Source of the DNA: Eledone cirrhosa | Lineage: Eukaryota | Length of the DNA stretch: 64,000 bases | Assembly (NCBI GenBank): GCA_964016885.1 | Contig: OZ024743.1 | Span: 367,846,001 to 367,910,000 of the forward strand | Direction: 5' to 3' | In this document: positions 8,134 through 63,752 of the stretch, one piece after another | How positions within the stretch are numbered: the stretch's first letter is position 1 | How the letters are laid out: each line of letters starts with the position of its first letter | Made by a program: the position numbers and the translations under genes | Notes under the pieces: model-generated | What the model saw: the letters and a program-made list of their open reading frames with translations, nothing else | Databases searched by the model: none | Told to the model about the DNA's origin: nothing

Positions 8134-8439
8134 TATCAAATAAGAGTAGTTAAGACTAGATTATTTCACCATAAATGCTTTATTGCTTGATATATATTTC
8201 TGTTACATGGTTATGCATGTGACTTCATCAGATGCTTATGATATCATAGTCATGTGTCGCTGGTGATGTATTAACATCCAGTTGTGATGCCAGCGACATA
8301 GCCCAATGATTGCATTACTACACCTATGATTGCATAGGAATCTGATAAAGTCACATGCATAACTATGTAATAGAAATATATATCACGCAATACAGTAATT
8401 ATGGTGAAATAATCCTGTTTTAACTACTTTCATTTGATA
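8134..8439. repeat. Diverged fold-back element with a hammerhead motif in each arm
   Basis: Arms at about 8134-8262 and 8289-8439 are imperfect inverted repeats. The right arm core is mutated (CTGATAA at 8342). Confidence 0.75.
8189..8236 (-). ncRNA. Minimal type-I hammerhead ribozyme motif
   Basis: Minus strand: gcat CTGATGA agtcacatg cataac catgtaaca GAAA tatatatc (stem II partly mismatched, palindromic AT stem III). Confidence 0.65.
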
Positions 8440-8568
8440 AATAAATACTCTGTAACTCCTAATCTCCAACTTTTAGCTGAGATAAACTACTGACGAGTCT
8501 TTTGGATCGGAAGACTTATCCTCAAGAAGTTACAACATAACAACTGTGTATAAGCAACTTATCTTCTG

Positions 8569-8617
<49 letters not shown>

Positions 8618-8689
8618 GAAAAGTTGAAAAATTCAACACACCATGAAATACAATGAAGATATATAATAGTTTCATGCTTAATATAGTAG

Positions 8690-8732
8690 AAAAGTCTTAA
8701 TGTTTCAGGCACTAGTCCTTCATCAGGAAATA
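8690..8732 (-). ncRNA. Minimal hammerhead ribozyme motif (degenerate)
   Basis: Minus strand: CTGATGA agg actagtg cct GAAA catta, in a (TA)n-flanked island at about 8594-8886. Stem I is poor. Confidence 0.55.
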
Positions 8733-8967
8733 GAATAAGAAATTAAAGAAATAGAAAGATAGAGGAGAGTGAAAGGATGTAGAAACGAAAAGAATTTTTT
8801 GAGAAAAAGCAGGTCTGTTCATTTATGAAGTAATTAACTATAAAATACTAACAACAATTACCAATACTATTTTATTTTACTTTCCAATATATATATATAT
8901 GTGCTCCTGCATTGAAACGTTCATAGAGTAAAATAATGTTGTAAATCTTAACTGGTTGTTCATTATT

Positions 8968-9777
8968 GGTGGTTTGGCAGTATCGGTAGAGAGTCGGACA
9001 CCATGCTTTGAAGTATAGAGTTACGGCCCTTTATGATCTAAGTTCAAATCCCGCCGAGGTTAACTTTGCCTTTCATCCTTACGGGGTCGATAAAATAAAG
9101 TACCAGTAATCATCATCACCGTTTTACGTCCGTTCTTCCATGCTAGCATGGGTTAGACGGGTTGTCTTGATGTGGACAGTGTCTGGTCGGCTGACCATGC
9201 CTTGCTCATACAGGAACTGATTTGGCTTGATTTCTACAGCTGGATGCCCTTCCTAACACCAACCTCATTTCAGTGAGTGCTGGGTGCTTTTTCGTGGCAA
9301 CTACACGTCCACTTTACAGTGTGGGCTGGGTGCTTTTTTGCCGTGGCACCTCCACGACCACCTTGCAGTGGGAGGGTGTGGGGGCATGTTGTCTATATGC
9401 TTCAGCTTGTATCTATGGGAGGTCGGGTACTCTGAGGTCACGGTCGTGTGTCATCGCCTTTGAGAGGTGTAATTGGGTAAGGTCGGCTTTAATCACCTCA
9501 TCCCAGGTCTTCTTGGGTCTCCCTACTCCGCGGTTTCCATTGACCTCTAGTGCTCTGCACCTTTTTATGCAGCTGTCATCCTTCATACGCATCACATGTC
9601 CATACCAATGCAACCTCCTCTTCTGCACACAGCATTTGATTCCTCTTATGCTCAGTCTCTCTCTCAATTCATTTATGCTTTGTCATTCGCGTATATTACT
9701 ATTACACATCCATCGGAGCATGCAGGCATAATGTACTGGGTAATTGCTGGCCTTGTGCCTAAAATAGAAACAATTAT
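8968..9777 (+). mobile_element. tRNA-derived SINE split by an antisense RTE insertion
   Basis: The SINE stops at gtaccagtaat (9110) and resumes at taatgtactgggtaattgctggcc (9729). Confidence 0.8.
9111..9727 (-). mobile_element. 5'-truncated RTE with the same composite 3' UTR as 1-1358
   Basis: Reverse complement of about 705-1340. ORF 9413-9667 reads RRLHWYGHVMR. Confidence 0.9.
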
Positions 9778-16543: not shown

Positions 16544-16925
16544 AAAGTACCAGTAATACACTGGGTAATTGCTGGCCTTGTGCCAAAAGTAGAAACAATT
16601 ATTTAGAGCAGTGGATTGGCAGTATTGGTAGAGGGTCGGACGCCATGCTTTGACGTATAGAGTTACGGCCCTTGCCATTCTGAGTTCAAATCCCGCCGAG
16701 GTTAAATTTGCCTGTCATCCTTACGGGGTCGATAAAATAAAGTACCATTAATGCACTGGGTAATTGCTGGCCTTGTGCCTAACATAGAAACAATTATTTC
16801 TCTTTACAAATCCCGCCGAGGTTAACTTTGCCTTTCATCCTTACGGGGTCAATAAAATAAAGTACCAGTAATGTACTGGGTAATTGCTGGCCTTGTGCCA
16901 ATAGTAGAAACAATTATTTCTCTTT
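16544..16925 (+). mobile_element. tRNA-derived SINE cluster (one full and two partial copies)
   Basis: B-box gagttcaaatcccg at about 16682 and repeated 3' ends. Confidence 0.85.
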
Positions 16926-16970
16926 ACACTTTTTTACCACTATAATGGTCACTATTTGCATATATATATA

Positions 16971-17323
16971 TACGATATTAAATAAATGGAAATTATATTT
17001 ATAAAACCATATTTATTTCATTATATATATTTCAGGGATATCATATTAAAAATATGTTATGCCTTCTTCAGACAAAATACAATATAGACAGTCTTATAAA
17101 TAAATAGATTCGACATACCTTTCAACATCGACTTGCATTTGAATCAACTCTTCAAATGCAAGTCGATGTTGAAAGGTATGTCGAATCTATTTATTTATAA
17201 GACTGTCTATATTGTATTTTGTCTGAAGAAGGCATAACATATTTTTAATATGATATCCCTGAAATATATATAATGAAATAAATATGGTTTTATAAATATA
17301 ATTTCCATTTATTTAATATCGTA
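16971..17323. repeat. Apparently perfect 173-bp-arm palindrome (7-nt loop) carrying paired hammerhead motifs
   Basis: Arms 16971-17143 and 17151-17323, loop TCAACTC. Flanked by (TA)n, with an unpaired ~90-bp tail on the right. Confidence 0.95.
17213..17280 (+). ncRNA. Minimal hammerhead ribozyme motif (mirror copy on minus strand at about 17014-17081)
   Basis: CTGAAGA(17223) agg catAACATATTTTTAATATGatat c cct GAAA(17261) tatata. Stem I is weak. Confidence 0.65.
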
Positions 17324-17934
17324 AATATACTCCAAATACTTGTTGAGTGCTTTTATATCAGTTATAAATATTTACTCGTTATAACCCAACAATTTAAATA
17401 TAACTTTCTATGTATATATATATATATATATTATGTGTGTGTGTGTGTGTATGTATACATATATATATATGTGTGTATAAGTAAATATGTATATATATAA
17501 TCCGTCTTTTGAAATTCTTCTCTACCTACTCAAAGAACTCTTTCCTTTTTTCCCATTCTCTCAACCTCACCTCCTACTACACCTCTTCCCTCCTCTCCCA
17601 CCCCCTCTAATTCACTATTTGATATCTGCTCCTTAAAAGAGCCCCCCCCACCACCACCACCACCACTACCATCCCCAACCACTAGGAAGACTATAAGTGT
17701 CAACAACTTTCTATGTCACCCTGCATTTCATAAGAACGAAACAGTTCTACTACTGTAGATGCCATTTCTATATTAAATATATATATCATCACCATCATCA
17801 TCACTGTTTAGCATCCATTTTCCATGTTTGCATGGGTTAGATGGGTCATCCACGCCATAAGGTAAGCCTGGCTAGAGTTGGCCATGTTGTACCTTGCTCT
17901 AGTGAGGACTGTAAATTTGGCCATGTTGACACAG

Positions 17935-18153
17935 CACACAAAAACAAGATGGTGTAGGACAGAACAAAGGAGAGACACAAAATAAAAACCTAGTCACTGA
18001 GGAGGTCACAGAGTGTGTGACGAAAGAGCTTTGACAATATATAAACAACCATCTGGTTATTGAAACAACCAACTGGAAATTTATAATAAATTGAAGTGAA
18101 AACCGACAGGTGCATGTTTTTATTGGCAACATGCCACCCCCCCAATATAACAA
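17935..18153 (+). mobile_element. Solo Penelope pseudo-LTR
   Basis: Homologous to the pLTRs at 25787-26080 and 27040-27262. Ends in (TA)n. Confidence 0.8.
17993..18035 (+). ncRNA. Type-I hammerhead ribozyme in pLTR
   Basis: GTCA CTGAGGA g GTCACA gagtg TGTGAC GAAA gagctt TGAC. Stems I and II both pair. Confidence 0.8.
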
Positions 18154-18559
18154 TATATATATATATATATACACATACACATCTGTATGTGTGTATTTAT
18201 AGGCACACATACATATATACATAAGGGCTGCAATATCTTCACAGATGATTACCGTCTCTTAATGAATCTCCATTGTCATTCCATCCGCCTCCATGACTTC
18301 ATAGATGACTTAATAGACCATCTGCAGATCTGCCTGGTTTAAGACACAGGTGACAGAAGAGAGCTGTGCTTTCCACAGGATTGTTGGGGTCATTTTGTGG
18401 AGTACAATCTTTATGCACCACCATGTGTTTTTTTAATCCGGAACTAGCTCTACACACTTTGTTGCATATCATGCACATTGTTTCACCAGGTCTTTGTTGA
18501 ATGATGTTGCGGGTGGTTGTTCTTTCATGTGACTTCAGGTGATTAATGTTAGCAGCTTT

Positions 18560-18950
18560 TGAAAGGAGAATTCATTAACAGAATTTGCATGTCCAACTAC
18601 TGATGTGTTTTCATCAAGACTGTAAGCATAATCTTTCTGGAGCTGATGCTTCAGTTGTTTATGTTCTAAGTGACATTCTTAAATGCTTTGCAACTGCCCT
18701 TTATGAACTTTCTCCACTCAGCCTTATTTAGAGCTATCTCCTCCCAGTCGTCTATATCAAATGCCAGCTCTTTGAGGTTGTTCGGTTTATGTTGAGGCAT
18801 TTTTCCAATGTAAAACAGTTGCTTTGAGATCTTGCTTTCTTTCATGCGGACAATATGTCCTGTCCAGTGCATTTGAGATGTTACTAGATACTTAATGCTT
18901 GGACATTCTGCTTTGACAAAGATATTGATGTCGGGAGTGACCTCTCTCAT
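18560..18950 (-). mobile_element. RTE (BovB-like) LINE 3' fragment
   Basis: HWTGHIVRMKESKISKQLFY...DIDDWEEIALNKAEWR. Confidence 0.7.
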
Positions 18951-19379
18951 AATGGGACAACCGAGCTCCCAAAATATAGTTCAGCTGTGAGCAGGGTATG
19001 GCATGGTCAACTGGCCAGACCCTCCTCATAATGGTACCTCCCAGCTCCACACTGTAAACGTGGTTAGTGTTAGGAAGGGCATCCAGCAGTCATAAAAACC
19101 CAGCCAACACACAGTCCCAATATGTGCAAGGTATGGCACAGCCATCTAGCCAGACTTGTCTCATAACAGTGCCACCCAGTTCCATACTGTAAACATTGGT
19201 TGGTGCTAGGAAGGGCATCCAGCTGTAAAAATCCCTGCCAAAATACAGTTCCGTTTGAGCAAGGTACGGTGTGGCCAACTGGCTAGACTTGTCTCATAAT
19301 GTGGATGACCCATCTAACCCATGCAAGCATAGAAAAATAGACATTAAATGGTGGTGATGATGATGATATATATATATAG

Positions 19380-19640
19380 TGAGAGAACTAGGATTTAGCT
19401 TCAGACATAGCTATATACAGATATGTATAGGAATTTCGTATTTCTAAAGAAACATGGTATGTTTATAGATAAGCATTTAAAAAGCCATAGCTATGAAAAA
19501 AACACCATGGGGGGCTATCCCCTCTGGTGGTGTCCAGCAGAAGCAAGGGGGACAATCGTCAATGCATTTCGAACTTAACTGGTTCTCATCAGGACGATTC
19601 CTCCCAACTCTTGCAACGGCTGGATTTGAAAACAGTCGAG
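19380..19640 (-). mobile_element. Retrozyme-like non-coding element, related to 54571-55260
   Basis: Shares gaatttcgtatttctaaagaaac and ctctggtggtgtccagcagaagcaagg with 54770-54865 and carries an intact hammerhead motif. Confidence 0.7.
19554..19599 (-). ncRNA. Type-I hammerhead ribozyme (best-preserved in window)
   Basis: Minus strand: AATCGTC CTGATGA GAAC cagttaa GTTC GAAA TGCAT T GACGATT. 7-bp stem I, 4-bp stem II, palindromic ATGCAT stem III. Confidence 0.88.
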
Positions 19641-19879
19641 AATATCATCATCATCATCATCTTCATCATCATCATTTAACGTCTATCTTCCACGCTAACA
19701 TGGGTTAGACGGGAATTGTCCCATTTGAGGTAAGATTGGTCGGGTGATCATGTCTCGCTCGTATAGAACTATCTGGCAGGTTTTCTACGGTTGGGTGCCC
19801 TTCCTAATACCAACTACATTTACAGTGTGGGGGAGCTTTTTACCGTGTTACCTATATGACCACATTACAGCGTGTACTG

Positions 19880-19926
<47 letters not shown>

Positions 19927-20309
19927 AATCATAAATCATATATATATCATAAATCATGTCCTTAGAATTATTAGATAAAATATATACCATTTCCTCTCCC
20001 AATTAGCATAATTAACCATGTAAAAAATCAATTAGACCAAGCTATAAGAATAAAGGCTCTTATGAAGAAATTTCTGACAAATAACCGAAACCAGCCTCTT
20101 CGCGGTGGCCCCAATAGAGTATTTATCCAACATTTCAACAGCATGTAGAAACTGACTAAATATACCATCAACCATACACAATTAGGTGTAAATTCAAACT
20201 TAGAAGAAATGTGTACATACTGTAATTATATCTTTACCATGGTTTCATCCATATTTTTAGACATCCAATTAACAGGATATACGTATATATATATATATAT
20301 ACACATATG

Positions 20310-20645
20310 CATCATCATCATCATCATCATCATTTCATTTTACGTCTGCTTTTTCCCTGCTTGCAAGGGTGGGACGGGAACTGATTCTGGCTTGATTTCT
20401 ACAGCTGGATGCCCTTCCTAACACCAATCTCATTTACAGTGAGTGCTGGGTGCTTTTTTGCCGTGGCACCTCCACAACCACTTTGCAGTGGAATGATATG
20501 GATCCCAGTCCTATCATCTCATTTCTACAGCTGAGTAAACTGGAGCAATGTGAAATAAAGTGTCTTGCTCAAGGAAACAACACATCACCCGGTCTGAGAA
20601 TTGAACTCACAACCGTTCGATTGCAAGGCCAATGCTCTAACCACT
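20310..20645 (-). mobile_element. tRNA-head CORE-like SINE with RTE-derived middle and 3' tail
   Basis: Minus strand: agtggttagagcattgg (A-box), gagttcaattc (B-box), tccttgagcaagacactt (CORE-like), then ggtgttaggaagggcatccagc and the tail cccacccttgcaagcaggg..gatgatg. Truncated copy at 48050-48330. Confidence 0.75.
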
Positions 20646-21404
20646 ATTATTTTCATTATCATATTCTTTTCTTAACTATGTCTACTTTTTTCCACGACTT
20701 TCTCCTCCTCTTTGTTATTGCCATGATTGCCATTATTTGCAATGTATGTACGTAAGTATGTATGTATGGATTTATAATTCTGGTTTTATAATTTCACAAA
20801 TTTATGTGTGTATGTATTCATGTATGCATGTATGCATTTGTTGGAGCAACTGTTTTTATTGCTGGATATAATAAATATATTACATCCAGCTGTACAAAGA
20901 TCCCAAACAAATTATTAGGAGAACCCGTTAGTTGTGTCAAAGCCAGACAACTTCTCTAATGCTTGCATCACTTGGTAGAGCATGGGGACAATGTAAGCTA
21001 GATGAGAACCCTTACTCTGTCTGGGAGGTCAGTAGCTCCACTGGAGTACTGACTCAATCTGTGAAAATCGGTCCTAAGCTTACTAGCTGGGAAAATGGAC
21101 ATTAAATGATGGTGATTATGGTGATGATATGTATATAAACCTAGTTCTTGATCAAAAGAAATTCGGTTATGATGGAAAGTGACTTCATAAAACTAGATAT
21201 TATATTAAGTTGTGTGTGTGCGCCAGTGCAGGTATCCAGTGTGCATGTGTCTGTGTGTGCATGTGAAAGGGAGGGGGAAGTATGTGAGGGAGTGATAGTC
21301 TTTCAGTTGACCATCTATTTGTTTGAAATTTAATCGCTGTCCATTCCACTAACAGTACTTTCCAGTCAGATAATTTGATGTAAAATATAATTATGGTCAT
21401 TAAT

Positions 21405-22830: not shown

Positions 22831-24177
22831 TTATAATTATATTTTTCAAACACATAATTAGGTATATTTAATATTGAGTTGTTGAATACTAAGCACAAAC
22901 ACTAAATTCAAAAAAGACGATAATTTCCAAAATAAATTTTTATTTTAGAATTGTATTTGAAGGGTAAATAATTTTATAGGAATCTGTTAGTAATTTAATT
23001 TCTGACAAATATTACATTTCATTGAGCTTAGATTTGTAAAAAAAAAGTCTCTTTTCATATGACAGTTCAACACTTCACAAAATTTATTGCTTTTGTACTA
23101 ATATTCAATGTTTTATACAATTACAAATTTAATCTTTTCACTGAAATCTTAAAATAGTTATGAATTATGCAACAATATAAAAGGACTCCAAAGTCTATTG
23201 CAGTAAAGATGCATAAAAATTATCTTTCATATATCTTCATCTTCCCCATGTAACCATGTGAAAAATATAAAAGAATACAAGTTATCTAACTGCTTTTTTG
23301 AAGGTTTTCATGCTGATATTGTTTGGCTTTATGTTACTTAAATGTAAATTGTTATTTTTCTTTATTTTGAAATGAATTCTAAGCAATGGATGGAATAAAT
23401 GTGTGATTAAGTGACCACAGAATCATTTGCTATTCTTAATCAGATACTACTGGATAGAATTGCAATATTAAGATATAAACCAGTGAGTAAAATCATATAT
23501 ACCTCATAGATATAATCAAATATGACGTTGATAGATACCTAAAAATGTAAGAGCAATATCATGTAGCAGTTGCATGTATATAATTACATGTATATATTTC
23601 TTTGTTGAATAGTTTTGTGGTTTAGTTCATACATATGTAAAAAAATTATACACACATACACACACACATGGTGGCTGCCAACTCGTTTTCGAGTACGGCC
23701 ACTACTTTATATCCATGTAGGAGAACCCCTACCGATGCGCTGAACGAGTGTGACTTTTCAGTCCAGCCAGCGACTTGAAAACTCTAGTACAAACACTACA
23801 CTTGTGACAATGATTGACACACAGTGCTGGGCCCATGGTACCATGTGACGACAAGTGCAGAGAGATCTCCAGATATAAAGCAATGCCTGTGTCGTGAAGC
23901 TTTTATAGTGAGCAAAGGCACTGCACAAAGCCAGCCCCACTCTCTTAACACACATACATACACACATACACATACATACGTACATACACACGTACATATA
24001 CACATACACACAAATACATACATACACATACATACACATGCATCTACATATGTATGTATGTACATACATATACATACATACACATGCATACATATACATA
24101 CATACTTACATACATATATTAAGTGTAATGAATTCTTTTACAATGGAATTAGCTCAAAAGGAAATATTCCTGAGCCG

Positions 24178-24908
24178 TGTATAAAAGTAATATATATGAG
24201 TAATATATGTGATGAAACAGATACCAACACATCTGTATTTATATTGCAAAAGAAAATTAGCCAGAATGAAGAATATTAATTATTTTACCACAGTTCGTCC
24301 ACATCGATTTAAAATAATAAATCGACAAAAACTAGCTGCGCTGCCAAATGGCTATGATGTTTATACATATTTAAATTTCAAAATCAAACCTGTTCCGTAG
24401 ATAAGTTTAAACCTTAAAATCCAAACATGTTTCGAGATGAATAAGTGTATAAGTGTAGGAATATCTTGCCACTGCTCTCCTCAGTAAACATCCAGAGACA
24501 ATTGATAAGCTTCACTTCTAAATAATTTAAAAGACTGTGTGACGCACATGGGTTCACAGATTCAAGCTAGTCTCATAACCGTACTGCTAGAAATAACAGT
24601 CGTGAGGAGAGCAGTGGCATGATATTCCTACACTTATACACTTATTCATCTCGAAACATGTTTGGATTTTAAGGTTTAAACTTATCTACGGAACAGGTTT
24701 GATTTTGAAATTTAAATATGTATAAACATCATAGCCATTTGGCAGCGCAACTAGTTTTTGTCGATTTATTATTTTAAATCGATGTGGACGAACTGTGGTA
24801 AAATAATTAATATTCTTCATTCTGGCTAATTTTCTTTTGCAATATAAATACAGATGTGCTGGTATCTGTTTCATCATATATATTACTCATATATATTACT
24901 TTTATACA
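24178..24908. repeat. Fold-back element, ~305-bp near-identical arms with hammerhead motif
   Basis: 24178-24483 is the inverse of 24603-24908, with a ~120-bp spacer. Duplicated ORFs 24209-24400(+) and 24686-24877(-) confirm the inversion. Confidence 0.93.
24420..24490 (-). ncRNA. Hammerhead ribozyme motif with long stem-II loop
   Basis: Minus strand: CTGAGGA GAG...CTC GAAA CATGT t (palindromic ACATGT). The right-arm copy starts at TGAGGA (24603) and lacks the first core C. Confidence 0.7.
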
Positions 24909-25752: not shown

Positions 25753-25790
<38 letters not shown>

Positions 25791-25975
25791 CGTTTCTGAA
25801 TTTGTTTAGCAAGATTCTTTATCGGAAAACGTGTGTTGAAACTGATATTGTTATACTTTGGGAGGGTCATGTTGCCAATAAGAAACACATGCACCAGTTG
25901 CTTTCACTTCAATTTATTATAAATTTCCGGTTGGTTGGTTGGTTGGTTCCACAACGCGGTGGTTGTTCATATATT

Positions 25976-26017
25976 GTCAAAGTCTTTCGTCACACATTCT
26001 GTGACCTCTTCAGTGAC
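25976..26017 (-). ncRNA. Hammerhead ribozyme in 3' pLTR
   Basis: GTCA CTGAAGA g GTCACA gaatg TGTGAC GAAA gactt TGAC. Confidence 0.8.
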
Positions 26018-26213
26018 TGGGGATTCTTTTCTTTGTTTTGTGCCTCTCCTTTGTTCTGTCCTACGCCATCTTGTTTTTGTTTTTTTTGTTTGTGTTGTGT
26101 GCTTAGTTTGCGCATGTGTTACATCCGGGTGTCCGTGTGTGATTTTTATTTGTTTATTTACATGTTACTAGTTAGTTGTTTGTTCTATGTGTGTGTGTGT
26201 TTTCATTTTGTCC

Positions 26214-27040
26214 TTAATTGTAAGTTGTGATGTTGCTGTTCCATTCATGTTTCCTCTTTAATTTTGGTTGGAGTTCATTTATGTTTATTGCCTCTGTGAT
26301 TTGTCTAAACATTGCGTCTTTTCTGTGTGTAGATTTTGTTTTTATTTCTATGTTCTCTAATTTGCCCTTATGTTCTATCTTAGCATGTTGGTGGAGTACT
26401 GATGACTCTTTTCTATCTTGAATCTCTCGCCAGTGTTCATTTAATTGTTCTCCTATACTACGAGCTGTCTCACCTATGTACATTATATTCTTATCTTTAC
26501 ATTGTCCCTCAGTACATCTTATGCTATATACTATGTTTCTAGTTTTACAGTTAATATGGGGGCTTAGTTTACAGATTATGCATTTCTTATCTATACAGGG
26601 AGGTCTTTGAAAAGGGTATGTATTACTAATAAGTGTTTTTGTGGAGGCACTTGGTCTTTCCACTATCTTAATATTGAGTTTATGTTTATCAAGGGCCCTT
26701 CTAAATTTGTAAGCTAATTCACTTCTAGGGGTTGTATTGATGAACATTACACTCTGGTATTTATTGTTATCATACCATGAGTTTATTTTATTAATCTTAT
26801 TCCTAGTTCTTTCTATTCTATTCCAAAATTTGCTCCTATACAAGAGGCAGGTCCCATTTGTATCATTATTTACCATTTTTTCCCATTTGGTTCTGGCTCC
26901 TCTATATACTCTGATTTTATCTCTCTGATTGTAACCAGAGAACTGCATACGGTGGATGAAGTGTTTTATGTGTCTCTCTAGTTCTTTGGGGTTGCACATG
27001 CAGGACATGTTCCTCATCACCCTTACTAAATCCGCAATCA
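26214..27040 (-). pseudogene. Penelope RT-thumb/linker plus Cys knuckle plus GIY-YIG endonuclease (truncated ORF)
   Basis: CIDKKCIICK..NCKTRNIVYSIRC..MYIGETARSIGEQLNEH..HAKIEH..RQITEAININE. The ORF-track N-terminus (27158-27040) is read-through of the inverted pLTR. Confidence 0.9.
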
Positions 27041-46596: not shown

Positions 46597-46597
46597 A

Positions 46598-46629
<32 letters not shown>

Positions 46630-46785
46630 ATATATGTATATATACATATATAATGTATAAACATATGTATATATACATATATAATGTATAAACATATGTA
46701 TATATACATATATAATGTATAAATATGTGTATATATACATATATAATGTATAAACACACTAGTCTGCAAATATATACATACGCAA

Positions 46786-46816
<31 letters not shown>

Positions 46817-46905
46817 CAGGCATTCACACACACACACACACACACACGTATACATACACACATGCACACATACACATATATATACATATACATATATATA
46901 TATAC

Positions 46906-46992
<87 letters not shown>

Positions 46993-48382
46993 TACATATA
47001 CATACACATACACACACACACATGTATATGAACGCTAAGGCTGCGAGTAAAGTAAAAAAGTAAATAAATATAACAAAAATGCATGCACATACATATATAT
47101 ATATACACATGGCATAACACACTAGTCTGCAGACATATACATACACAAATACAAGGGAAAAAATATAAATAAAATAAAATAAAATAAAATAAAATAAAAT
47201 AAAATAAAAATATATATAAGCGGGCGGGCAAAATGATACGAAGATGTCACACACATAAAGATAAACTTATACATAAATACAATCACATATGCAAAACTAC
47301 AAATAGATACATGCATGTATGTGTCCAGTGGAAGTATAAACATATTGAAGCATGCAAAAATACAAATGAACACACACAGATAACCACACTTTTAATGAAT
47401 AAAATAGGTGTAATATATTCATTTTTTCTTTTCCCTAATTTTACCTTGAACAATCTCTCTTACTTTACCACGAACACTCTCTCTTATTTTATTCCATTTT
47501 ATTTTATTTTACATTCATATTATTGACTTCATCATTTCCTGAACCACTATCTCTTATTTTTACCACCATGGCCATTTACCACATACTTACAACACTTTTA
47601 TTTTATATTACACCTAGTTTATCCATTTCTTCATTTACTTTTACCTTGAACACTCTCTATTATTTTAATCACAAACTTTCTCTCTTATTTTAAACACCCC
47701 AAATATTTTTACATATTCAACACTTATTTTATTTTATACTTAATTTACACTTATATTATTGACTTATTGACTTCATCTTTTCCCAAACCTTCTTTATTAT
47801 TTTAACCACCATGGGCCTTTATCACATACTTTCAACAACAAAATATTTTTATAGCTTTGTTCTATACATAGAGCACTCGTTTTTCCTTTGCCTTTATCAC
47901 ATTCTTTTAACAACAAAATATATTTTATATATTTTTATATTTTTTATATACATAGAGTGTTCTATACATAGAGCACTCGTTTTTCCTTTGCTTCCTCTTC
48001 CTATATAACACATATATCTTTTTATATATATTTATTTTATATATATATATCATCATCATCATCATCATCATCATCATTTTACGTCCGCTTTTCCCTGCTT
48101 AAAAGGGTGGGATGGGAACTGATTCTGGCTTGATTTCTACAGCTGGATGCCCTTCCTAACACCAACCTCATTTACAGTGAGTGGTGGGTGCTTTTTTTCC
48201 GTGGCGCCTACATGTTCACTTTACAGTGTGGGCTGGGTGCTTTTTTACGACTTTGCAGTGGAATGATAGAGACCCCAGTCCCTATCATCGCATTTCTACA
48301 GGTGAGTAAACTGGAGCAATGTGAAAGGAATATATATATATATACATATATGTATGTATATATATATATGTATGTATGTATA

Positions 48383-48707
48383 GTTTTGCGATGTTTTTGA
48401 TATGAAATCGTGTGTCGAAACAAATATTGTTATACTTGGGGAGGGTCATATTTGTGTAATAATATTACCAGAATTAATAACAGAATACACTCACTGTTTG
48501 GTTGGTTTGAAGCGAAAACCAACCAAACAGTGAGTGTGTTCTGTTATTAATTCTGGCAATATTATTACACAAATATTGCCAGAATTAATAACACTTACGG
48601 GGTCGATAAAATAAAGTACCTGTAATGCACTGGGTAATTGCTTGCCTTGTGCCTAAAGTAGAAACAATATTATTACACAAATATGACCCTCCTCAAGTAT
48701 AACAATA
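48383..48707. repeat. Fold-back of a Penelope pLTR-tail sequence with a SINE 3' fragment in the right arm
   Basis: ttgttatacttggggagggtcat...atgaccctcctcaagtataacaa matches the pLTR ends at 25848/27262. Hairpin centre near 48510. SINE piece at 48594-48668. Confidence 0.75.
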
Positions 48708-48752
48708 TGTATATATATATATATATGTATGTATATCTATCTCTATATATAT

Positions 48753-48996
48753 GTTTCCACGAACCAAAGTCTCGTCTTCCTGTCTTCCTCCGGTTGCAAC
48801 GTTTTTTGAAATATCCACTTCTGCGTTTACAGATTGACTTTGTTAGTTTCAGAAGATCCCGTTAAGGGTGAAAGCAGCGATTCTTTGCTTAAACTTCTGA
48901 AACTAACAAAGTCAATCTGTAAACGCAGAAGTGGATATTTCAAAAAACGTTGCAACCGGAGGAAGACAGGAAGACGATACTTTGGTTCGTGGAAAC
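48753..48996. repeat. Palindrome, 103-bp arms, 38-nt spacer
   Basis: 48753-48855 is the inverse of 48894-48996. Followed by two diverged ~140-bp tandem units (48984-49258). Confidence 0.92.
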
Positions 48997-49842
48997 GTTC
49001 CCTGGCAAAGAACGGGGAAAAAACGAATAAAATACGTCATTATTTGGAGCGGTGAAAATCAATTACGTGCAAAGACAGAACCACGTTTATGGTATAAAAG
49101 AAGTCGTAGACTAATGTTCTCTTAGGTGGTTCATAGAGACGTTCTCTGGCAATGAACGAAAAAATCGAAGATAATACGTCATATGGAGAACAATTGCACG
49201 CAAAGACCAAACCACGTAAATGGTTTCGCTGAAGTTGTAGACTAAAATTCTAACTAGGAAACCGAATGATTCTCCGCTTCAGAGTTAAGAATAAAGTAAA
49301 TAAAATACAATACAGAGGTAGTTGAAATTAAATAAATACATACACGCATCCAAATACGTACATACACAAGCATACGCGAAAACACTCGCCATAGGTATAC
49401 AAAACCACGCACATATAAATATGTGTGTGTTTGTGTGTGTGTGCGTGTATACAAATAAATAAGTAATTAAATAAACGTATATAAATAAATAAATACGTAT
49501 ATAACAAGCGCACACACATACCTACATGTAAATACACAAATGTTCGGAGACAACCGTCAACCAAAACATGAAGTACCCATATACACACACCCAACATACG
49601 TACGAACCCGCATACTCACACAGACGCAAAACTCCCGTATACACATAACCAAAAGCATATGTACCAGAATATATAAAAATATACTCCATAACATATACAA
49701 TCAAATATACGTACGAGAAAGTATACGTACCTTCACAAAACATACAGGTAATATATACTTACCTATGCAAATAAGTAATGGTATAAACAAACATATACTT
49801 AGCTACCACATCAAGACGTAAAATATCCACGTATAGATCGTA

Positions 49843-51949
49843 CTATCCGTTAGGGTATAATGTGGGGCTGTAATACAGGAAAGTTTTGTGCAATTTACAA
49901 GCCGAAATTGCCTCAGATTTTTTGTTTAAGATGTGGTCTGTGGCGTAGAGTATTTCCAGGGCTTCAGCGGCGCAGAGGTCACATGGTCTTTTATTTCCGT
50001 TATACGATCTAGCCCTAGCTAGGATCTCCCAGTGTAACTTATATTGGGTGTGGTTGTCTTTTAGACTCCAGATATAAGCTGAAAGTGACGTCATATTCCT
50101 TCTTAGAAGGTAACGAAAAGAATGGGTATGCATATAAAGACGCTGCTTGAATCTATTGGCGGTTAACTCTATGTAGGCCCTACGGGACGTGGGTGTGTCA
50201 ACCTTACATTCAATGTTACTAGAGAGGCATTTCCCAGATAGGGGGCAATCAACCCAATTCCTACAATTACAGTTAGTACTAACTACAGGGTTGCACGTGT
50301 TCCTACGGCTAGGTAGTTTAGCTAAATTTGAAGCTGTGATGTTATGTGCAAGGCTAGGAGTCGTAGAGTAAGAAATTTTAATAGTATTTCTATTAAAAAG
50401 TTTACTATATTTATGTGTAGGGGGAAAATGCTTCGTAATAAGGGATAGAAAGATTTTAGCTAATGGTGTGGCCACCTCCATATTATATGGTGGGTTATAC
50501 CATATAATGCGACGGGATCTATTTCTTCTAGGTCTATTCTCGTACTCTGTATATGCTACCTTATCGACAAATCCACTCCGATCAAGAGCTTCATTGTAAT
50601 AAGTGGAATGGTCGTTGAAAATATGCTCGTTAGTAGATAGACGGGAAAGCCTCAACGAAACGTTTCATACCAGGTTCTTGGTTACGCTGGCAGGATGGTT
50701 GGAATGCTTACTTACGTAATTAAGCGTATCATTCGGCTTTCTATACGGGTAATACAAGCCATTCGATAAATTGAGGGTAACGTCGAGGTAATTAACGACC
50801 GAGAAGTTGGCTTCAACCTGTATAGAGAGGTTGAAGCCTTTAAAGAAGGCTGTGAGTTCTTTTCTGAACCTGTCGCAAGCACTTAGTCATGGTCAAAAGA
50901 CCATCATCACAGTACAAACCACCGCCCGCGTTGGGGAATTCGTCCTTGATAGAGAAAAGAAGGAAAAGGCCGACAAGATCAGTAACCTCCGCAGAATCGC
51001 TGGCGCCCATACTCACGTCGAATGGGGTACTATTGGATTTTTTAATCCAAATAGAGTCGTCGAAATTAATCACCGACTTACGGGCATTGAGGATGACATC
51101 AACTTCGAAATCCTTAACCACTGTGAGTGTTTTAGCGAAATTGATAGCTCTAAGGAGTAGTGGTAAAGTGATGGAGGAGTAGTAATTATTGATGTCGAAT
51201 TGGATAAAACGGCAATGTTCCTTGTTGCATATGCCGTTGAACCAATCAATCACCGCGAAAGAATTGTTCCACAGTGCAAGAGGGGCCAAACTTCTAATTT
51301 CAGGTATAATTCTATCAAGAATCCTTTTACTAAGTCTATCTAAATCGGACTTCGTAGGGTTAATAAGCCGAATAGAGGGGTTGTTCGGAAAATTGGATTT
51401 GTGATCCTTCAGGATAAAGTGGGGAAAAATAGGGTCCAGAGGTTCTATCCGGTCCAGGATGTTGAGATCAGAGGTGATTTTAAACCCAGCATCGTTGATT
51501 TCATTGATGACGCACCGATTAGTTTTACGGTAATCCTTAGTTACAGCATTATGTAGTAGTTGATGGTAAGTACTGTGCTCCACTTGATATAGGTTGCCAG
51601 TTTTGTCGGAATGGACGTGCACGGCATTATAATCCTTAATAGAACGAATTCTATTCTTCAGGTCCTGCTGGAAGGAATTGCTCCTATTCCGAAATTTGAT
51701 ACTCCGTATGAGTTCCAAGACATCATTTTCAATGGGTAGCAATGTTGGGTTACACGGAGGGTTATTATAGGTTTTAAACCCAAATTTATCCTGTTTGTTG
51801 TCAGCTTTTCGCGGATTATCGAAATAAAAGGCACGCCAACGCAACCTTTTAATGAACGAATCTGTTTTCTGTATCAGGAGTTTTAGGTATGTTTTCCTCC
51901 TTGGTACGGGTATGTTCTTTGAAGAAATATTCAGATGTTGTTTCTGCAT
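49843..51949 (-). pseudogene. Naiad-like Penelope element ORF (RT plus GIY-YIG), full length but disrupted
   Basis: N-terminus SSKNIPVP..IKRLRWRAFYF; RT FDINNYYSSI, MGASDSAEVTDLVG, GLYCDDGL; YLDVTLNL..HSNHP; CNCR..CPLSGKC, YIELT..FKQR, CDLC..LNKKSE. Frameshift near 50885 and in-frame TGA at 50665-50667. Confidence 0.88.
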
Positions 51950-51978
51950 GATGAATATAAGTCAATAGAGGAAGCCAA

Positions 51979-52138
51979 ATAGTAATAATAATAAATTTGA
52001 AGACTAAAATCCAAAGAGGGCTCGATAAAGATAAATATATATCAAATATATAAGAAACGGTTCTTATATATTTGATATATATTTATCCTTATCGAGCCCT
52101 CTTTGGATTTTAGGCTTCAAATTTATTATTATTACTAT
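51979..52138. repeat. Palindrome, 78-bp arms, 4-nt loop, at the 5' end of the Naiad-like ORF
   Basis: 51979-52056 is the inverse of 52061-52138. Followed by (TA)n. Confidence 0.92.
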
Positions 52139-52157
52139 ATATATATAAGATGACAGC

Positions 52158-52197
<40 letters not shown>

Positions 52198-52234
52198 ACG
52201 ACAGCTGTATAAAAAAGTGCAGGGCGATAAAAAT

Positions 52235-52772
52235 AGACGGTAGCCACGGAGTAGGCAGACCCAGAAAAACCTTGGACGACTTGATAAATTCCGACCTCAC
52301 ACACTTACACCTCTCCAAGACAATGTCACAGGACCGAGATCTTTGGCGCTACACAGTAATACAGAAGACCTGCCTTGCCTAAGTATAAAGCGAAACCTAC
52401 AGTCAGTAGGCACCTCTAACAAAAATACACTCCGTCCCACTACCCCCACCCCATCCACACCACCCCTTTCGATGTAAAGTTATGTTGGTTCCACAACATA
52501 CAGTCCGAAATAAATGAGGTCGTGTAGGTATCACGACAAAAAAACACACAGTTCACGCTGTAATGTGGCCGTGTAGGTAACACGGTAAAAACCTCCCAGT
52601 CCACACTGTTAACGTGGTTGGTGTTAGGAAGGGCATCCAGTCGTAGAAAACCCGCCAGACAGTCCTATACGAGCAAGACAACCAATCTTGCCTCAAGTGG
52701 GAAAATTCCCGTCCAAACCCATGCAAGCGTGGAAGATAGACGTTAAACGATGATAATGATGATGATGATGAT
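52235..52772 (+). mobile_element. RTE 3' end, subfamily of 10133-13250
   Basis: Reverse complement of about 10135-10640, with (GAT)n tail. Confidence 0.88.
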
Positions 52773-52782
52773 ATATATATAT

Positions 52783-53090
52783 ATAAAATGGAAAACGGAG
52801 AATCAGTGATGCATTAGAACTCAATTTATTACGTATTACAACTGATTCGCAAGTTCCTTAGATACGTCTAGTGATTTCGAAGCAAATTCTCTTTCTTCGA
52901 AATCACTAGACATATCTGAGGAACTTGCGAATCCATTCGAAATCACTAGACGTATCAAAGGAACTTGCGAATCCAGAGTCAGGTTCGATCCACAAACAGA
53001 TCGCACCTCGAGCTGTTCGCCGGAGAAACAATTGTAATACGTAATAAATTGAGTTCTGAAGCATCACTGATTCTTCGTTTTCCATTTTAT
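52783..53090. repeat. Nested fold-back element with degenerate hammerhead motif
   Basis: Outer arms 52783-52840 and 53030-53090, inner hairpin and a 40-bp tandem duplication. Consensus ACGTAT CTGAGGA acttGCGAA..TTCGCcgga GAAA CAATTGT A ATACGT. Confidence 0.7.
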
Positions 53091-53163
53091 CATACTCTGC
53101 TCCATAGAAGCATAGAGTGCTCAACCGGCATACCGCCTATGGACGCATCCTAGCAACCATACG

Positions 53164-53246
<83 letters not shown>

Positions 53247-53629
53247 TATGTGTGTGTGTGTATATATATATATTTTATATATATGTGTGTGCATATATGT
53301 ATTTATGCGTGTGATTATCTGTGTGTTTATTTGTATTCTTGCATGCTTCAATATGTTTATACTTCCACTGGACACATACATGCATGTATCTATCTGTAGT
53401 TTTGCGTATATGATTGTATTTATGTATAAGTTTATCTTTATGTGTGTGACATCTTCGTACCATTTTGCCCGACCGCTTATATATATTTCTATTTTATTTT
53501 ATTTTATTTATATTTTTTTCCCTTGTATTTGTGTATGTATATGTCTGCAGACTAATGAGTTATATTTATTTACTTTTTTACTTATGTTTTCGCAGCCTTA
53601 ACGCTCATATACATGTGTGTGTGTCTGTC

Positions 53630-53663
<34 letters not shown>

Positions 53664-53692
53664 GGCATAGGTTAAGAATAACGTCCTCGAAA

Positions 53693-54278
53693 ATGAAAGT
53701 GGATTTTTTGACAAGTGAATGTGTTTGTTTGTTTTTTTACAGTGAAATTTACGATACACTCTTTGTTTATTTACAACAGGTCTCTATAGTGATATGGTGT
53801 TAATTAGTATTGCGTGTGTGATTATTTTCTCTTATATATATATGTGTGTATATATACGTGTGTCTGTATGTATATATATATGTGTGTTTGTATATATATA
53901 TGTGTTTGTGTCATCATCATCGTTTAGATGTTTTTGTAATATCTTGCCAAAGTTGGCACCAACTATAAACAAATTAAGGCCGGGTCATAAGAAGGACAGA
54001 GAATAATAAGGGATTTGGGTAAAAACATCTAAACGATGATGATGACACAACACATATATATATACAAACACACATATATATATACATACAGACACACATA
54101 TATATACACACATATACACACCCACACATATATATATAAGAGAAAATAATCACACACGCAATACTAATTAACACCATATCACTATAGAGACCTGTTGTAA
54201 ATAAACAAAGAGTGTATCGTAAATTTCATTGTAAAAAAACAAACAAACACATTCACTTGTCAAAAAATCCACTTTCAT
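53693..54278. repeat. Inverted repeat with ~245-bp arms and 85-bp spacer
   Basis: 53693-53935 is the inverse of 54021-54278. Mirror ORFs 53794(+) and 54177(-). Confidence 0.9.
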
Positions 54279-54570
54279 CTATAAGTTTGTGGATGTGTGT
54301 AAAAAAATATCACGTATTCACAATCCAAATTGAAAATAATGACGTACGTAACTGTCAAAAATTAGTTTCACTTTTGAGACCGGCCGTTTTGACGTATGCC
54401 TATATATATATATGTGTGTGTGTGTATATATATGTATATGTATATATATGTGTATGTGTGCATGTGTGTGTGTGTGAATGCCTGTATATGTTTATGTTTG
54501 TATGTATATATATGCGTAGATGTATATACATGTATATATATGCGTAGATTTGTATACATTTCTGTCTTTA

Positions 54571-55260
54571 CTGGCCTTCCTCTGGACGGTCTCTCCCACA
54601 GCTTGCGAGTTCTGGACTTGAAGACAGGTGAGAATATATACTTTTCTCGTCTGTGTAAATGAGGTGATTAATCTCATTTGCATATGAAGCTGCATAAGTT
54701 GGCTCAACTTATAATAGAATAGAAATAGTATTTCGCTTCAAGCATATCTTTATACAAATATGTATAGAAATTTCGTATTTCTAAAGAAACACGGTTTTAG
54801 GAAGCCGTAGCTATGGAAACACCGGGGCTAACGCCCTCTGGTGGTGTCCAGCAGAAGCAAGGAGGACACCTGTCTATGCATTTCAGGCTTGACTGGCCTT
54901 CCTCAAGACGGTCTTGTATAAAGCTATGCTTGAAACGAAATCTTATTTCTATTCTATTATAAGTTGAGCCAACTTATACAGCTTCATATGCAAATGAGAT
55001 TAATCACCTCATCTACACAGACGAGAAAACTACATATTCTCGACTGTTTTCAGGTCCAGCAGTCGCAAGCAGTGGGAGAAACCAGTCAAGCCTGAATTGC
55101 ATAGACAGGTGTCCCCCTTGCTTCTACTGGACACCACCAGAGGGCGCTAGCCCCGGTGTTTGCATAGCTACGGCTTCCTAAAACCGTGTTTCTTTATAAA
55201 TACGAAATTTCTATACATATTTCTATAAAGCTATGCTTGAAGCGAAATCTTATTTCTATA
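54571..55260. mobile_element. Retrozyme-like ~322-nt monomer present as two inverted, circularly permuted copies
   Basis: ctggccttcctc..gacggtc repeats at 54571 and 54893. tataaagctatgcttgaa.cgaaatcttatttctat repeats at 54917 and 55224. Hammerhead motif on minus at 54868-54912. Confidence 0.78.
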
Positions 55261-55473
55261 CATATATATATTTTACTTTTATCTGAATGTGTGTATGTGT
55301 GTGTATATGTATGCACACATATATCTTTTTCTATATTGCTATATATTTTTATATTTTTATTTATTATTTTTATTACCCTTCTTTTCTTATGTACATTTCT
55401 TGTTATTTTTCCAGCCTCACTTCCAATTTTTAACAGATTTTAAATCTCATTTCATATTTTTTATCCATAACAT

Positions 55474-55541
55474 TTCTGTCTGACGACCGATCCAGACGTA
55501 TATTATTATCGCCTGTGATCCAGAAACCTTTGGTAATGGAG
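55474..55541 (+). ncRNA. Type-I hammerhead ribozyme motif (copy B of 41176-41243)
   Basis: ttctgt CTGACGA(55480) ccgatccagacg..cgcctgtgatcca GAAA(55523) cctttggt a atggag. Confidence 0.68.
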
Positions 55542-55575
55542 TAGTTATATTTTGTGTTGTTCACTTTCTAATTAA

Positions 55576-55615
<40 letters not shown>

Positions 55616-61100: not shown

Positions 61101-61259
61101 TTCCCCTTTTCCCCTTCTGTCCTCTTCCTCCCATGTCTTAACACTCCATCCTCTACCATTCATCCATGCCCTTATACTCCACCCTTCACCAGCTAAGTGC
61201 CCCACCCTAGTTCTACCTCTCCAATTCCCACCCCTCTTCTTTGTCTTCGTCTTATTATT

Positions 61260-62040
61260 ATTCTTCGCTCACCTATTTCTGAGAGGATCAGAAGGAGTCC
61301 TGTCAGAAGCAACCATATCCAACTGATCCAGCTGAATACTCAAGTGAGACCAGCCAAGATCATGGATGTTATCCAACTATTTTGCTCAGTCTACCCCTGG
61401 GTTTCCTGCCAGTTGGTTTTGCCCATAAAATCTGTCCAGCAATTCTTTCCCAAAACATTCTAACCACATATCCAAAGTGATCTCTCAATTCAGAGAAGTA
61501 GTGACTCTCTGATCTCCTTATCTCTCCTGGAGTGACTCTCTGATCTCCAAGCTATGCACTCTATCATGTAACATTACTCCAAAGACTCTTTGGAAGAACC
61601 CCATTTTGGCCACTTGTATTTGCAATCATATTCTTTTGGACATTACCCAAGATGCATGACCATAAGTAAGGGTTGGCATGAATACTGAATTGAAGATAGC
61701 GAGCTTGGCCTTTACATTTACCTCTCTCTCCTTCTAATTGCTGTATGCTGAAGATGGTGCATTACTACACCAGCTCCAGCAATTCTTGCACTTAATTCAA
61801 CTTACTGCCTTCCACCACTCGTGAACACGGCCCCAAGATACTTGAACTTCTTTCCCTGCTTCAATAGAACTTCATTTACATGTAGAGTGCATTGTGCAGG
61901 CTTCCTTGAGAGGATGAGTGTCTCAGTTTTTGCAGCACAGATTTTCATTCCAGCTATACAGCCCTCAGCATCAAACCTATCAAGTGAAAGTCGGAGATCC
62001 CCTTCTGTCTAGTTAAGTATCACCATGTTGTCTGCACTTT
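61260..62040 (-). mobile_element. Expander-like LINE 3' portion
   Basis: Homologous to 39100-39480 and 40000-40280. Confidence 0.8.
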
Positions 62041-62230
62041 TCCAGCCAACCGATTTTACACTCTATATCTATAAATACATTAACTAATCTCTAAACCCAT
62101 GCTAGCGCGGAAGATAGACGTTAAACGATGATGATGATGATGATGATGATGATGATAATAGTATTTAATATATTGATATATCTATATATGTATGTATCTA
62201 TATATCTATATATGTATGTATATATATATC

Positions 62231-63277
62231 AAGGGAACATGCCAGTCAGATAGATTATATCCTTACCAGAAGACATGACAAAGTGTCGGTTGTAAACACT
62301 AAATCCCTACCCTGCGAAGAATGCACCTCCCAACATAACCTCATAGTTAGTGACCTCATAGTCAGGATGAGACATACTCGACAACAGAGGAGGACTACCC
62401 TGAGAAAAAGAATATGGAAGTTAAAGGACCCCACAACCAGTAACAAATTTAAAAGCATACTACTCAATTCTTTTGACAGTAAGGAAGAGCAATTAGAGCA
62501 GTACAATATAGAGGAACAGTGGGAATTCCTGAAAGTTAACCTGCTGAAGGCGACATATGAAATCTCTGGCTGGAGCAGACCTATAGGCAGGAGGAGAGTA
62601 GCGTGGTGGTGGAACAGTAAGGGGGAGGAGTCAATCAAGACTAAGAAGCAAGCTTGGAAAGTATGGCGGGATGGGGGAAGTAGAGAACACTATCAAATGG
62701 CGAGGAGGGAAGCTAGGAGACAAGTGTACTTTGCAAGAAGGGAAGCAGAGGAAAGAAAATTCAAGCAGGTTCTACAACACGAGGACCAAAAACGTGAGGT
62801 GTTCAGGATTGCTAGACAATGTGTCAAGGAAAATCGTGATATTGTCGGGGAGAAGTGATGATGGTATACTTGCGTCACTGATACTGATAAGAAGGTGGCT
62901 TGGAAGTGTCGTAGGCTCCTCCTAACCAAAAATACCCCCCCCCCACTACCCTTACCCCCCCCCCCCCCCCATCTACACCTCCTAAAGTTATGTTGGTGCC
63001 ACAACATCCAGTTCTAAATAAATGAGGTCGTGTAGGTGTCACAACAAAAAAACACACAGTCCACGCTGTAATATGGCCGTGTAGGTAACACGGTAAAAAC
63101 CTCCCAGCCCACACTGTAAACGTGGTTGGTGTTAGGAAGGGCATCCAGCCGTAGAAAACCCACCAGACAGTCCTATATGAGCGAGATAACCAATCTTGCC
63201 TCAAGTGGGACAATTCCCATTTAAACCCATGCTAGCGTGGATGATAGACATTAAACGACGATGATGATGATGATGAT
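62231..63277 (+). mobile_element. Internally deleted RTE (APE-RT linker joined directly to 3' UTR)
   Basis: ORF 62283-62858 matches the 12300-12900 region. At about 62910 it jumps to the 3' UTR seen at 52405-52770. Confidence 0.85.
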
Positions 63278-63399
63278 ATATATATGTATATATATATATC
63301 TATATATCTATATGTATGTATGTGTATATGCGAATAGATGACAATGAATATGCGAATAGATGACAGTTGATAATATGTATGTGATTATATAGATATATA

Positions 63400-63752
63400 C
63401 TTCGTTTTTGTATTTGTTTTGCAAGATTTCTTATCTGAAAATGAATGTTGAAACAGATGCTGTTATACTTTGGGAGGGCCATGCTGCAAATAAAAACACA
63501 TGCATCTGTTGGTTTACATTTCAATTTATTACAAATTTCCAAAATGGTGTTGGACAGAACAAAGGATAGACTCAAAATAACAGATAATCACTGGAGAGGT
63601 CACAGAATGTGTGAAGAAAGAGCTTTGACAATAAATAACCAGCCATCCGGTTATTAAACCAACTAACTGGAAATGTATAACAAATTAAAGAGAAAACCAA
63701 CAGGTATGTGTGTTTTAATTGGCAGCATGAACCTCCCACAGTATAACAATAT
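63400..63752. mobile_element. ORF-less fold-back of Penelope pLTRs with degenerate hammerhead
   Basis: pLTR tail on minus (63400-63540) fused to a plus pLTR (63540-63752). atca CTGGAGA ggtcaca gaatg tgtgaa GAAA gagctt tgac at 63587-63629. Confidence 0.75.

Follow-up and report, generated by a model that had tools for sequence, protein, structure and literature searches.

Hammerhead-ribozyme motifs beside (TA)n microsatellites of Eledone cirrhosa: probable ends of Penelope-like elements, with two retrozyme-like families that lack open reading frames

The sequence analyzed here (the window) is a stretch of 64,000 nucleotides (nt) of the Eledone cirrhosa genome, positions 367846001-367910000 of contig OZ024743.1 in a 3.0-Gb assembly. 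It contains repeats that carry the motif of the hammerhead ribozyme, many of them as inverted pairs of a long, tailed arm and a short arm (fold-backs), together with remains of Penelope-like elements (PLEs), whose open reading frames (ORFs) bear reverse transcriptase (RT) and GIY-YIG endonuclease regions and lie between pseudo-long terminal repeats (pLTRs). Families were labelled by the position of the hammerhead core: A, 8231; B, 8726; C, 17223; D, 17997, 26013, 27103, and 63590; E, 19592 and 54906; F, 41237 and 55480; G, 52956; H, 24483; and I, 48850. The last, a ninth family, was absent from the list in the preliminary description of this DNA. The features are given below, with UTR standing for untranslated region.

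8124-8233, minus strand: short arm of family A, core at 8231, stem I decayed
8336-8570, plus strand: long arm of family A, tail of about 120 nt ending in (TA)n; core G8A
8615-8830, minus strand: solo copy of family B, core at 8726; old family, about 83% identity
16965-17142, minus strand: short arm of family C, intact hammerhead at 17071
17152-17418, plus strand: long arm of family C, intact hammerhead at 17223, tail of about 89 nt; pLTR of an intact 737-aa Hydra-type element
17938-18156, plus strand: solo pLTR copy of family D, intact hammerhead at 17997
19378-19645, minus strand: solo copy of family E, an apparently ORF-less monomer of about 340 nt; hammerhead at 19592
24118-24602, minus strand: long arm of family H, an ORF-less tandem monomer of about 525 nt; core at 24483, 62-nt tail
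24603-24908, plus strand: short inverted arm of family H, beginning inside the core
25788-26213, minus strand: 3' pLTR of family D with tail, hammerhead at 26013
26214-27039, minus strand: 5'-truncated ORF of family D, with RT thumb, CX4CX2C linker, and GIY-YIG endonuclease (Neptune/Nematis type)
27040-27264, plus strand: inverted short arm of family D, core at 27103, U4C
41081-41543, minus strand: long (tailed) arm of family F, hammerhead at 41237; left end of a large split fold-back
46630-47389, minus strand: microsatellite-rich 3' UTR of family F, continuing the left arm
48383-48710, no strand assigned: terminal fold-back related to family D, without hammerhead
48753-48896, plus strand: arm of family I, hammerhead-like motif with core CAGAAGA (U4A)
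48894-52059, minus strand: body of the Hydra-type element of family I, broken RT/GIY-YIG ORF (50840-51961, 49843-50664)
52057-52134, plus strand: inverted tail of family I
52783-52881, minus strand: short arm of family G, with an internal deletion
52896-53166, plus strand: long arm of family G, 40-bp duplication, long-stem-II hammerhead (core changed here), 76-nt tail
53179-53663, plus strand: 3' UTR of family F, right arm
54566-55257, no strand assigned: second subfamily of E, complex fold-back; core at 54906 (minus), C3U, compensated stem II
55251-55577, plus strand: short arm of family F, hammerhead at 55480
63401-63752, no strand assigned: fold-back of family D, tailed arm on the minus and short arm on the plus strand; hammerhead decayed

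The motifs were searched with a type-I descriptor comprising the core (CUGANGA and GAAA), stems I to III, and UH, with stem I open, and 30 block-wise dinucleotide shuffles of the window served as the control. Seven intact matches were found, at 17071(-), 17223(+), 17997(+), 19592(-), 26013(-), 41237(-), and 55480(+), against a mean of 0.13 (maximum 1) in the shuffles, and a stricter descriptor gave five against 0-0.17; the comparison with shuffled sequence suggested in the preliminary description was positive. Every site that it named carries the CUGANGA-stem II-GAAA-stem III motif, either whole or in decayed form, and no mutual similarity was detected by blastn among the nine family references, which upholds its claim of about eight mutually unrelated families. 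Family H keeps an intact core at 24483(-), where stem II is long and stem I is rich in G-U pairs. Decay was found in the window, with most fetched relatives intact, at 8231 (stem I), 8726 (stem III), 27103 (U4C), and 52956 (core changed), these relatives belonging to families A, B, D, and G; further decayed motifs lie at 54906 (C3U) and 63590, and the CUGAGGA at 52916 is part of the 40-bp duplication of family G. Relatives of E show a clean motif with a stem I of 6-7 bp and, in most, an AUC cleavage site. All five palindromic stem III words reported earlier are present (ATATAT, ACATGT, ATGCAT, ACAATTGT, and AGCT), with the correction that 41237 and 55480 have a stem III of 3 bp in place of a palindromic word.

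Outside the window, a genome sample of forty 10-kb stretches (400 kb) taken at round positions of 23 contigs contained 24 intact-core motifs in 17 of the 40 stretches, against 0.125 in shuffled sequence. Of the 24, one to three resemble chance matches, and five single-letter core decoys gave 0-1 matches each in the same sample. These independent counts, together with reversed-pattern controls that retrieved 0 copies against 17,858-21,256 for the true patterns described below, refute an origin of the motifs by chance matching in AT-rich, repetitive DNA, an idea whose probability is now negligible. In its favor are the tuning of the descriptor on the same window, folding z-scores around zero, and the failure of the Rfam check proposed earlier, in which none of the 150 matches listed (of 151 at E<=10) was to a hammerhead model, the matches being of microRNA type and falling on palindromes and microsatellites.

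The hammerhead motifs are real. The canonical core is kept over 72 distinct stem I/stem III contexts among the fetched loci, and the stems vary and covary; stems II of 50-80 nt occur among these contexts, as do stems III of 3-5 bp that could work as monomers. Covariation, also proposed as a check in the preliminary description, was scored on 30 distinct motifs of the family C group. Since the pattern used to select these related rows fixed stems I and III, stem I was uninformative and stem II provides the sole honest test; there, eight of nine pairs show two-sided changes and 93.6% of cells are paired, a covariation score reached by 0 of 500 shuffles, with 36-57% paired in slid controls.

Intact motifs occur once per 9 kb in the window and about once per 17 kb in the genome sample, the window being about twice as rich. 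The earlier density of one motif per 5 kb holds only when decayed copies are counted, and the very large ribozyme load that it was taken to suggest is supported by the sample. Extrapolation gives a genome total of about 180,000 motifs (bootstrap 105,000-270,000). Copies were also counted with exact patterns of 19-35 nt that took in stem I, the first half of the core, and a portion of stem II, which yielded 17,858 for C, 20,681 for D, 21,256 for I, 521 for B, 418 for F, 141 for H, 107 for A, and 27 for E (0 in all reversed controls), together about 61,000; these patterns demand the core, and copies starting at the cleavage site fall outside the counts. The 3' core half is also kept in 56 of 60 family C arms. 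The genome is likely to hold more than 100,000 hammerhead motifs. Published counts include 126,247 in the axolotl (PMC7229834), more than 6,000 in a coral, about 5,000 in a mussel, and, in PMC4209133, about 9,000 in Xenopus and 2,000 plus 1,300 in Schistosoma, a comparison that is only rough because descriptors differ between studies. No hammerhead census of any cephalopod was found in the literature searched. A Penelope expansion has been noted in coleoids (PMC8967140), and 31 recently active Penelope-like families are listed in the repeat annotation of Octopus vulgaris, in the main text of which the word 'ribozyme' is absent (PMC13282606). At about one motif per 17 kb, the genome would represent a big natural library of minimal ribozyme variants missed by Rfam.

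Families C, D, F, and G are, judged by their sequence, the pLTRs of ORF-bearing PLEs. Elsewhere in the genome they run upstream into RT/GIY-YIG ORFs, and their short copies are thus best seen as truncated insertions of autonomous elements. The link to PLEs drawn in the preliminary description is thereby supported, and its view of the copies as non-autonomous mini-elements survives for families E and H only. Long copies of family C continue for 1.5 kb upstream into the GIY-YIG end, the protein search returned many open frames of 736-761 codons, and three of six fetched copies (L211, L213, and L215) have the structure pLTR-ORF-pLTR, in which the frame is open over 745 codons and each pLTR holds a hammerhead, the two lying 3,741 nt apart. 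The tail of this family extends to the ORF start, and the protein carries RWR, DKT, YRDD, CxCX5C, CxxC, and CxH and no CCHH. In family D, 6 of 24 other loci have an ORF end upstream of their pLTR, and the ORF in the window has a CX4CX2C linker of the Neptune/Nematis type, these two clades being treated as one here. Family G joins Hydra-type ORF remnants via a UTR of about 1.8 kb in two loci, and family F joins such remnants in one locus. Among these four families the clade assignments would be Hydra, with the exception of D.

The family D element at 25788-27264 is a minus-strand, 5'-truncated copy that retains only the RT thumb and the endonuclease part and has a short arm in inverted orientation, and 63401-63752 and 48383-48710 are independent shorter insertions of the D type. 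A reduction series leading from 25787-27262 through 63400 to 48383, as envisaged earlier, is therefore not maintained. The family F sites 41237 and 55480 are the ends of a single 14.5-kb fold-back broken by nested insertions; the insertions that interrupt its microsatellite-rich UTR arms at 41081-55577 are an RTE element, copies of I, G, D, and E, and SINE-like repeats (short interspersed nuclear elements), a local clustering that arises because the elements nest in each other's (TA)n. Same-strand pairs of family F in L310 and L311 were rejected as pLTR-ORF-pLTR candidates, being local duplications.

Only E and H appear to be closed ORF-less monomers of a retrozyme-like kind. The E unit is about 340 nt long, with repeats spaced 336 and 342 nt in two loci (L010 and L018). 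The H unit, about 525 nt with a spacing of 519-534 nt, occurs as dimers and trimers, as pairs of inverted dimers, and as an array. That array (L313, 230480000-230489500 of the window's contig) comprises about 23 H monomers spaced 519-520 nt, among them 16 consecutive full units, and begins with an inverted truncated arm. The longest Met-started frames of the family have 49/63 codons, and no frame above 63 codons was found in it. The best H copies are 97-99% identical to each other. Both families bear the footprint of PLE insertion, namely the inverted truncated arm and the (TA)n target, and in H also two fixed 3' ends, and both were likely moved by the same Penelope machinery. Their hammerheads look minimal, not canonical. 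No report of retrozymes with PLE insertion footprints was found in the literature searched. Same-strand pairs of E (L293) and H (L252) were discarded as local duplications, not pLTR-ORF-pLTR. Identities of 80-90% mark families A and B as old, and the first 100 exact matches listed of each include no same-strand pair with the spacing of an element.

Two fixed 3' ends characterize most families, lying 122 nt apart in A, 89 in C, 57 in D, 58 in F, 76 in G, and 62 in H; those of E are less crisp, and B has a single end, mostly beside (CA)n and next to (TA)n in 1 of 15 copies (scripted count). An unselected test of fold-back structure used the 40 loci on contig 1 that contain 60 of the first listed family C matches. 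These 60 arms comprise 29 long and 31 short ones, and (TA)n adjoins the 3' end of 58 of them, against a background of 10%, in agreement with the enrichment of (TA)n flanks expected earlier. Both orientations are present in 18 of the 40 loci, and in 17 of the 18 one arm is long and the other short (binomial chance about 7e-5). The earlier picture of inverted-repeat pairs with one tailed arm is retained in this form, with the sites 8726, 17997, and 19592 excepted as solo copies, and the palindrome at 48383 is without a hammerhead.

The two ribozymes of a fold-back face outward on opposite strands, an arrangement that prevents them from pairing in cis as a dimer, and the RNA reading through a fold-back is predicted to form a single hairpin of -265 kcal/mol. 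Private variants are common to both arms at 0.50 per fold-back, compared with 0.13 in mismatched pairs (about fourfold); the non-overlapping arms in L052 and L053 imply that neither was copied from the other. The 5' ends are partly clustered: of the 26 family C arms whose end is no more than 125 nt from the core, the starts fall at -81 to -91 in 13 cases and at -39 to -41 in 5, a pattern that a promoter start or an RT stop could produce. The pLTR edge of full-length copies was rejected as the source of the -81 to -91 cluster, as two of three upstream pLTRs run further 5'.

The short fold-backs could be conceived as self-propagating non-autonomous elements that transpose as palindromic units, in the manner of miniature inverted-repeat transposable elements (MITEs). 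Most copies have no ORF, E and H are truly ORF-less, and the 13 of 26 short family C arms with starts at -81 to -91 make many copies alike in length. However, centre junctions vary from copy to copy, from which it follows that the palindrome is not a propagated unit, contrary to the preliminary description; inverted arms lie anywhere from 59 nt to several kb apart, intact ORFs are found between these same pLTRs, and H spreads as head-to-tail monomers to which inverted arms are added at varying points. Transposition as palindromic units is accordingly very unlikely.

It is highly probable instead that the sites are hammerhead-bearing pLTRs of endonuclease-positive PLEs, present in (TA)n as short solo or head-to-head copies, that these copies likely arose by two-strand cutting and reverse transcription from two fixed start sites, and that the two ORF-less families were likely moved by the same machinery. 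The element protein would cut both strands of the (TA)n target, and each nicked strand would prime one of the two internal start sites on the same source RNA. Both cDNAs would stop early and join at their far ends, leaving a palindrome with a one-sided tail, which under such two-site priming is a by-product. The ribozyme may work in source lineages, as a dimer or helped by protein, in trimming read-through or multimeric RNA, and would not be required for insertion; most genomic copies would be passive, and in fold-backs the ribozyme would be hidden within the double-stranded RNA of the copy itself. Short palindromes that annotation could file as MITEs or microRNA hairpins would in many cases be Penelope ends. 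Another fold-back, at 53693-54278, has 211-nt arms of 91% identity, in which no hammerhead motif was found.

Several observations weigh against this interpretation of the sites as PLE ends. The covariation alignment was pattern-selected from related rows, with stem II as its only honest test. Energy folding of ten single motifs was no better than that of shuffles (z -1.5 to +0.3), several single motifs have rival folds, and stem III is open in D and E; poor folding of monomers is what would be expected if the motifs need dimers, as is thought (hammerhead dimers are reviewed in PMC6765202). The clade calls are motif-based and not tree-based, and Pfam matched no family for either PLE ORF, both being recognized by motifs and tblastn. 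No ORF-linked relative or autonomous partner of E or H was present in 1.4 Mb of fetched sequence, and upstream walks from A and B reached longer UTR-like sequence and no ORF. One of the 18 family C fold-backs has two short ends, 7 shared arm variants stand against 6 unshared ones, and the shared ones could stem from later gene conversion.

The anatomy of pLTRs and fold-backs is already known (Cervera 2014, Craig 2021, Frangieh 2024), so the window itself is not surprising and largely represents ordinary PLE biology at an unusual scale; the motif load, family H, and family I go beyond it. Cervera and de la Pena (2014, PMC4209133) described the mass occurrence of minimal type-I hammerheads in PLEs. 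As there, the motifs studied here lie in pLTRs, have an extra base before stem II and a palindromic stem III, belong to many families per genome, and occur mostly as solo truncated copies or as opposite-strand pairs 100-700 bp apart, with a U3-A8 variant. In contrast, that work gives about 2,000-9,000 motifs per genome, compared with an estimated 100,000 or more here (descriptors differ), the stems II here reach up to 60 nt, and a fixed U4A family was not found there.

The insertion anatomy of PLEs, with an inverted arm, a one-sided tail, and a (TA)n bias, was described by Craig et al. (2021, PMC8557442). Like the Hydra clade of that study, the elements have RW(K/R), DKT, a CxCX5C linker, CxxC and CxH without CCHH, and hammerheads, and insert at (TA)n with an inverted 5'-truncated arm and a one-sided tail. 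Unlike that clade, described as generally below 3 kb with few families outside cnidarians and tails of 30-40 nt, they measure 3.3-3.7 kb or longer, with microsatellite-rich 3' UTRs, number tens of thousands of copies, and have tails of 58-89 nt. For the Poseidon element of the anole, two RT start sites were shown in vitro to bound the tail, both strands were cut and extended, and insertion proceeded without ribozyme activity (Frangieh et al. 2024, PMC11167929). The two internal start sites, the cutting of both strands at AT-rich DNA, and the position of the tail beside the ORF start agree with the elements studied here; the start sites of Poseidon had no strand preference in vitro, whereas 17 of the 18 fold-backs use one of each. 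Families E and H resemble non-LTR (long terminal repeat) retrozymes (PMC7229834; 10.64898/2026.07.22.740005) in their 340- and 525-nt ORF-less monomers with one type-I hammerhead each, in dimers and trimers and, for H, a long array. They differ in having minimal instead of canonical hammerheads. A PLE origin of retrozymes has been proposed (Li et al. 2026, 10.64898/2026.07.22.740005); the earlier link was argued from co-occurrence and pLTR homology, whereas H and E carry the insertion footprint itself.

Family I bears on whether the ribozyme is active. Its window element, at 48753-52134, is of Hydra type and 93% identical to a full-length copy and, in contrast to the other fold-backs, has a tail-to-tail junction of its two arms at stem I. 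The core reads CAGAAGA, with A in place of the core U4, and the motif has a stem I of 5 bp, a stem II of 3 bp with U-U at its base, and a stem III of 4-5 bp. A4 was present in 100 of the 100 matches listed and in 19 of 21 inspected copies, and the canonical U4 in only 94 of 21,256 exact copies. Two of three fetched copies (L307 and L308) are pLTR-ORF-pLTR elements with an RT and C-terminal GIY-YIG ORF and the motif in both pLTRs, about 3,260 nt apart, and the ORF has Hydra-clade motifs (RWR instead of RWK). Natural U4C and U-U hammerhead variants are known (PMC3088659, PMC7229834); U4A was not found in the literature searched, with supplements and the catalogue of PLE variants of Lunse et al. 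2017 lying outside that search.

The motifs could be hammerhead-shaped fossils that cleave in no lineage and are kept as part of the pLTR or as a protein-binding fold. Such a reading would accommodate the roughly 21,000 copies reached by the U4A family, the U at the cleavage position in D, H, and I, the mismatch at the base of stem II in several families, the weak cleavage of published minimal PLE hammerheads (PMC4209133), and the dispensability of a PLE hammerhead in vitro (PMC11167929). It is nevertheless somewhat unlikely, as it has to face the core kept in 72 contexts with varying and covarying stems, and the U3-A8 compensated core in both pLTRs around a Hydra-type ORF in L173, which points to selection on catalytic geometry. 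The L173 element (662-5892, minus strand) is a full Hydra-type pLTR-ORF-pLTR copy with both hammerheads compensated, and a second U3-A8 family is present in L052 and L173.

A broader reading, for and against which the balance seems even, would combine four statements: the genome would carry one of the densest hammerhead loads reported (more than 100,000 in dozens of families); a young ORF-less 525-nt retrozyme with a Penelope footprint would directly prove, from genomic data, the mobilisation of retrozymes by Penelope proteins; the most numerous family, U4A with more than 21,000 copies, would show either an active core variant of a new kind or a spread in vivo that needs no cleavage, these two families being natural experiments on the role of the Penelope ribozyme; and the strict pairing of long and short arms would reflect the use of both RT start sites per insertion, one per target strand. 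Family H would be a young retrozyme suited to a trans-mobilisation assay, and the comparison of family I (U4A, 21,000 copies) with C and D (canonical, 18,000-21,000) would make the function of the PLE hammerhead directly testable.

Other repeats were also identified in the window. A near-complete RTE-type long interspersed nuclear element lies at 43524-46596, with an endonuclease frame and a 728-aa RT frame, and ends in (GAT)n; a PHD-finger match falls inside the RT frame, and many decayed copies are scattered across the window. A 187-nt SINE-like repeat is present at 3623-4554, 5691-6010, and 16603-16928, including five near-identical tandem copies, together with dispersed and partial-tandem relatives.

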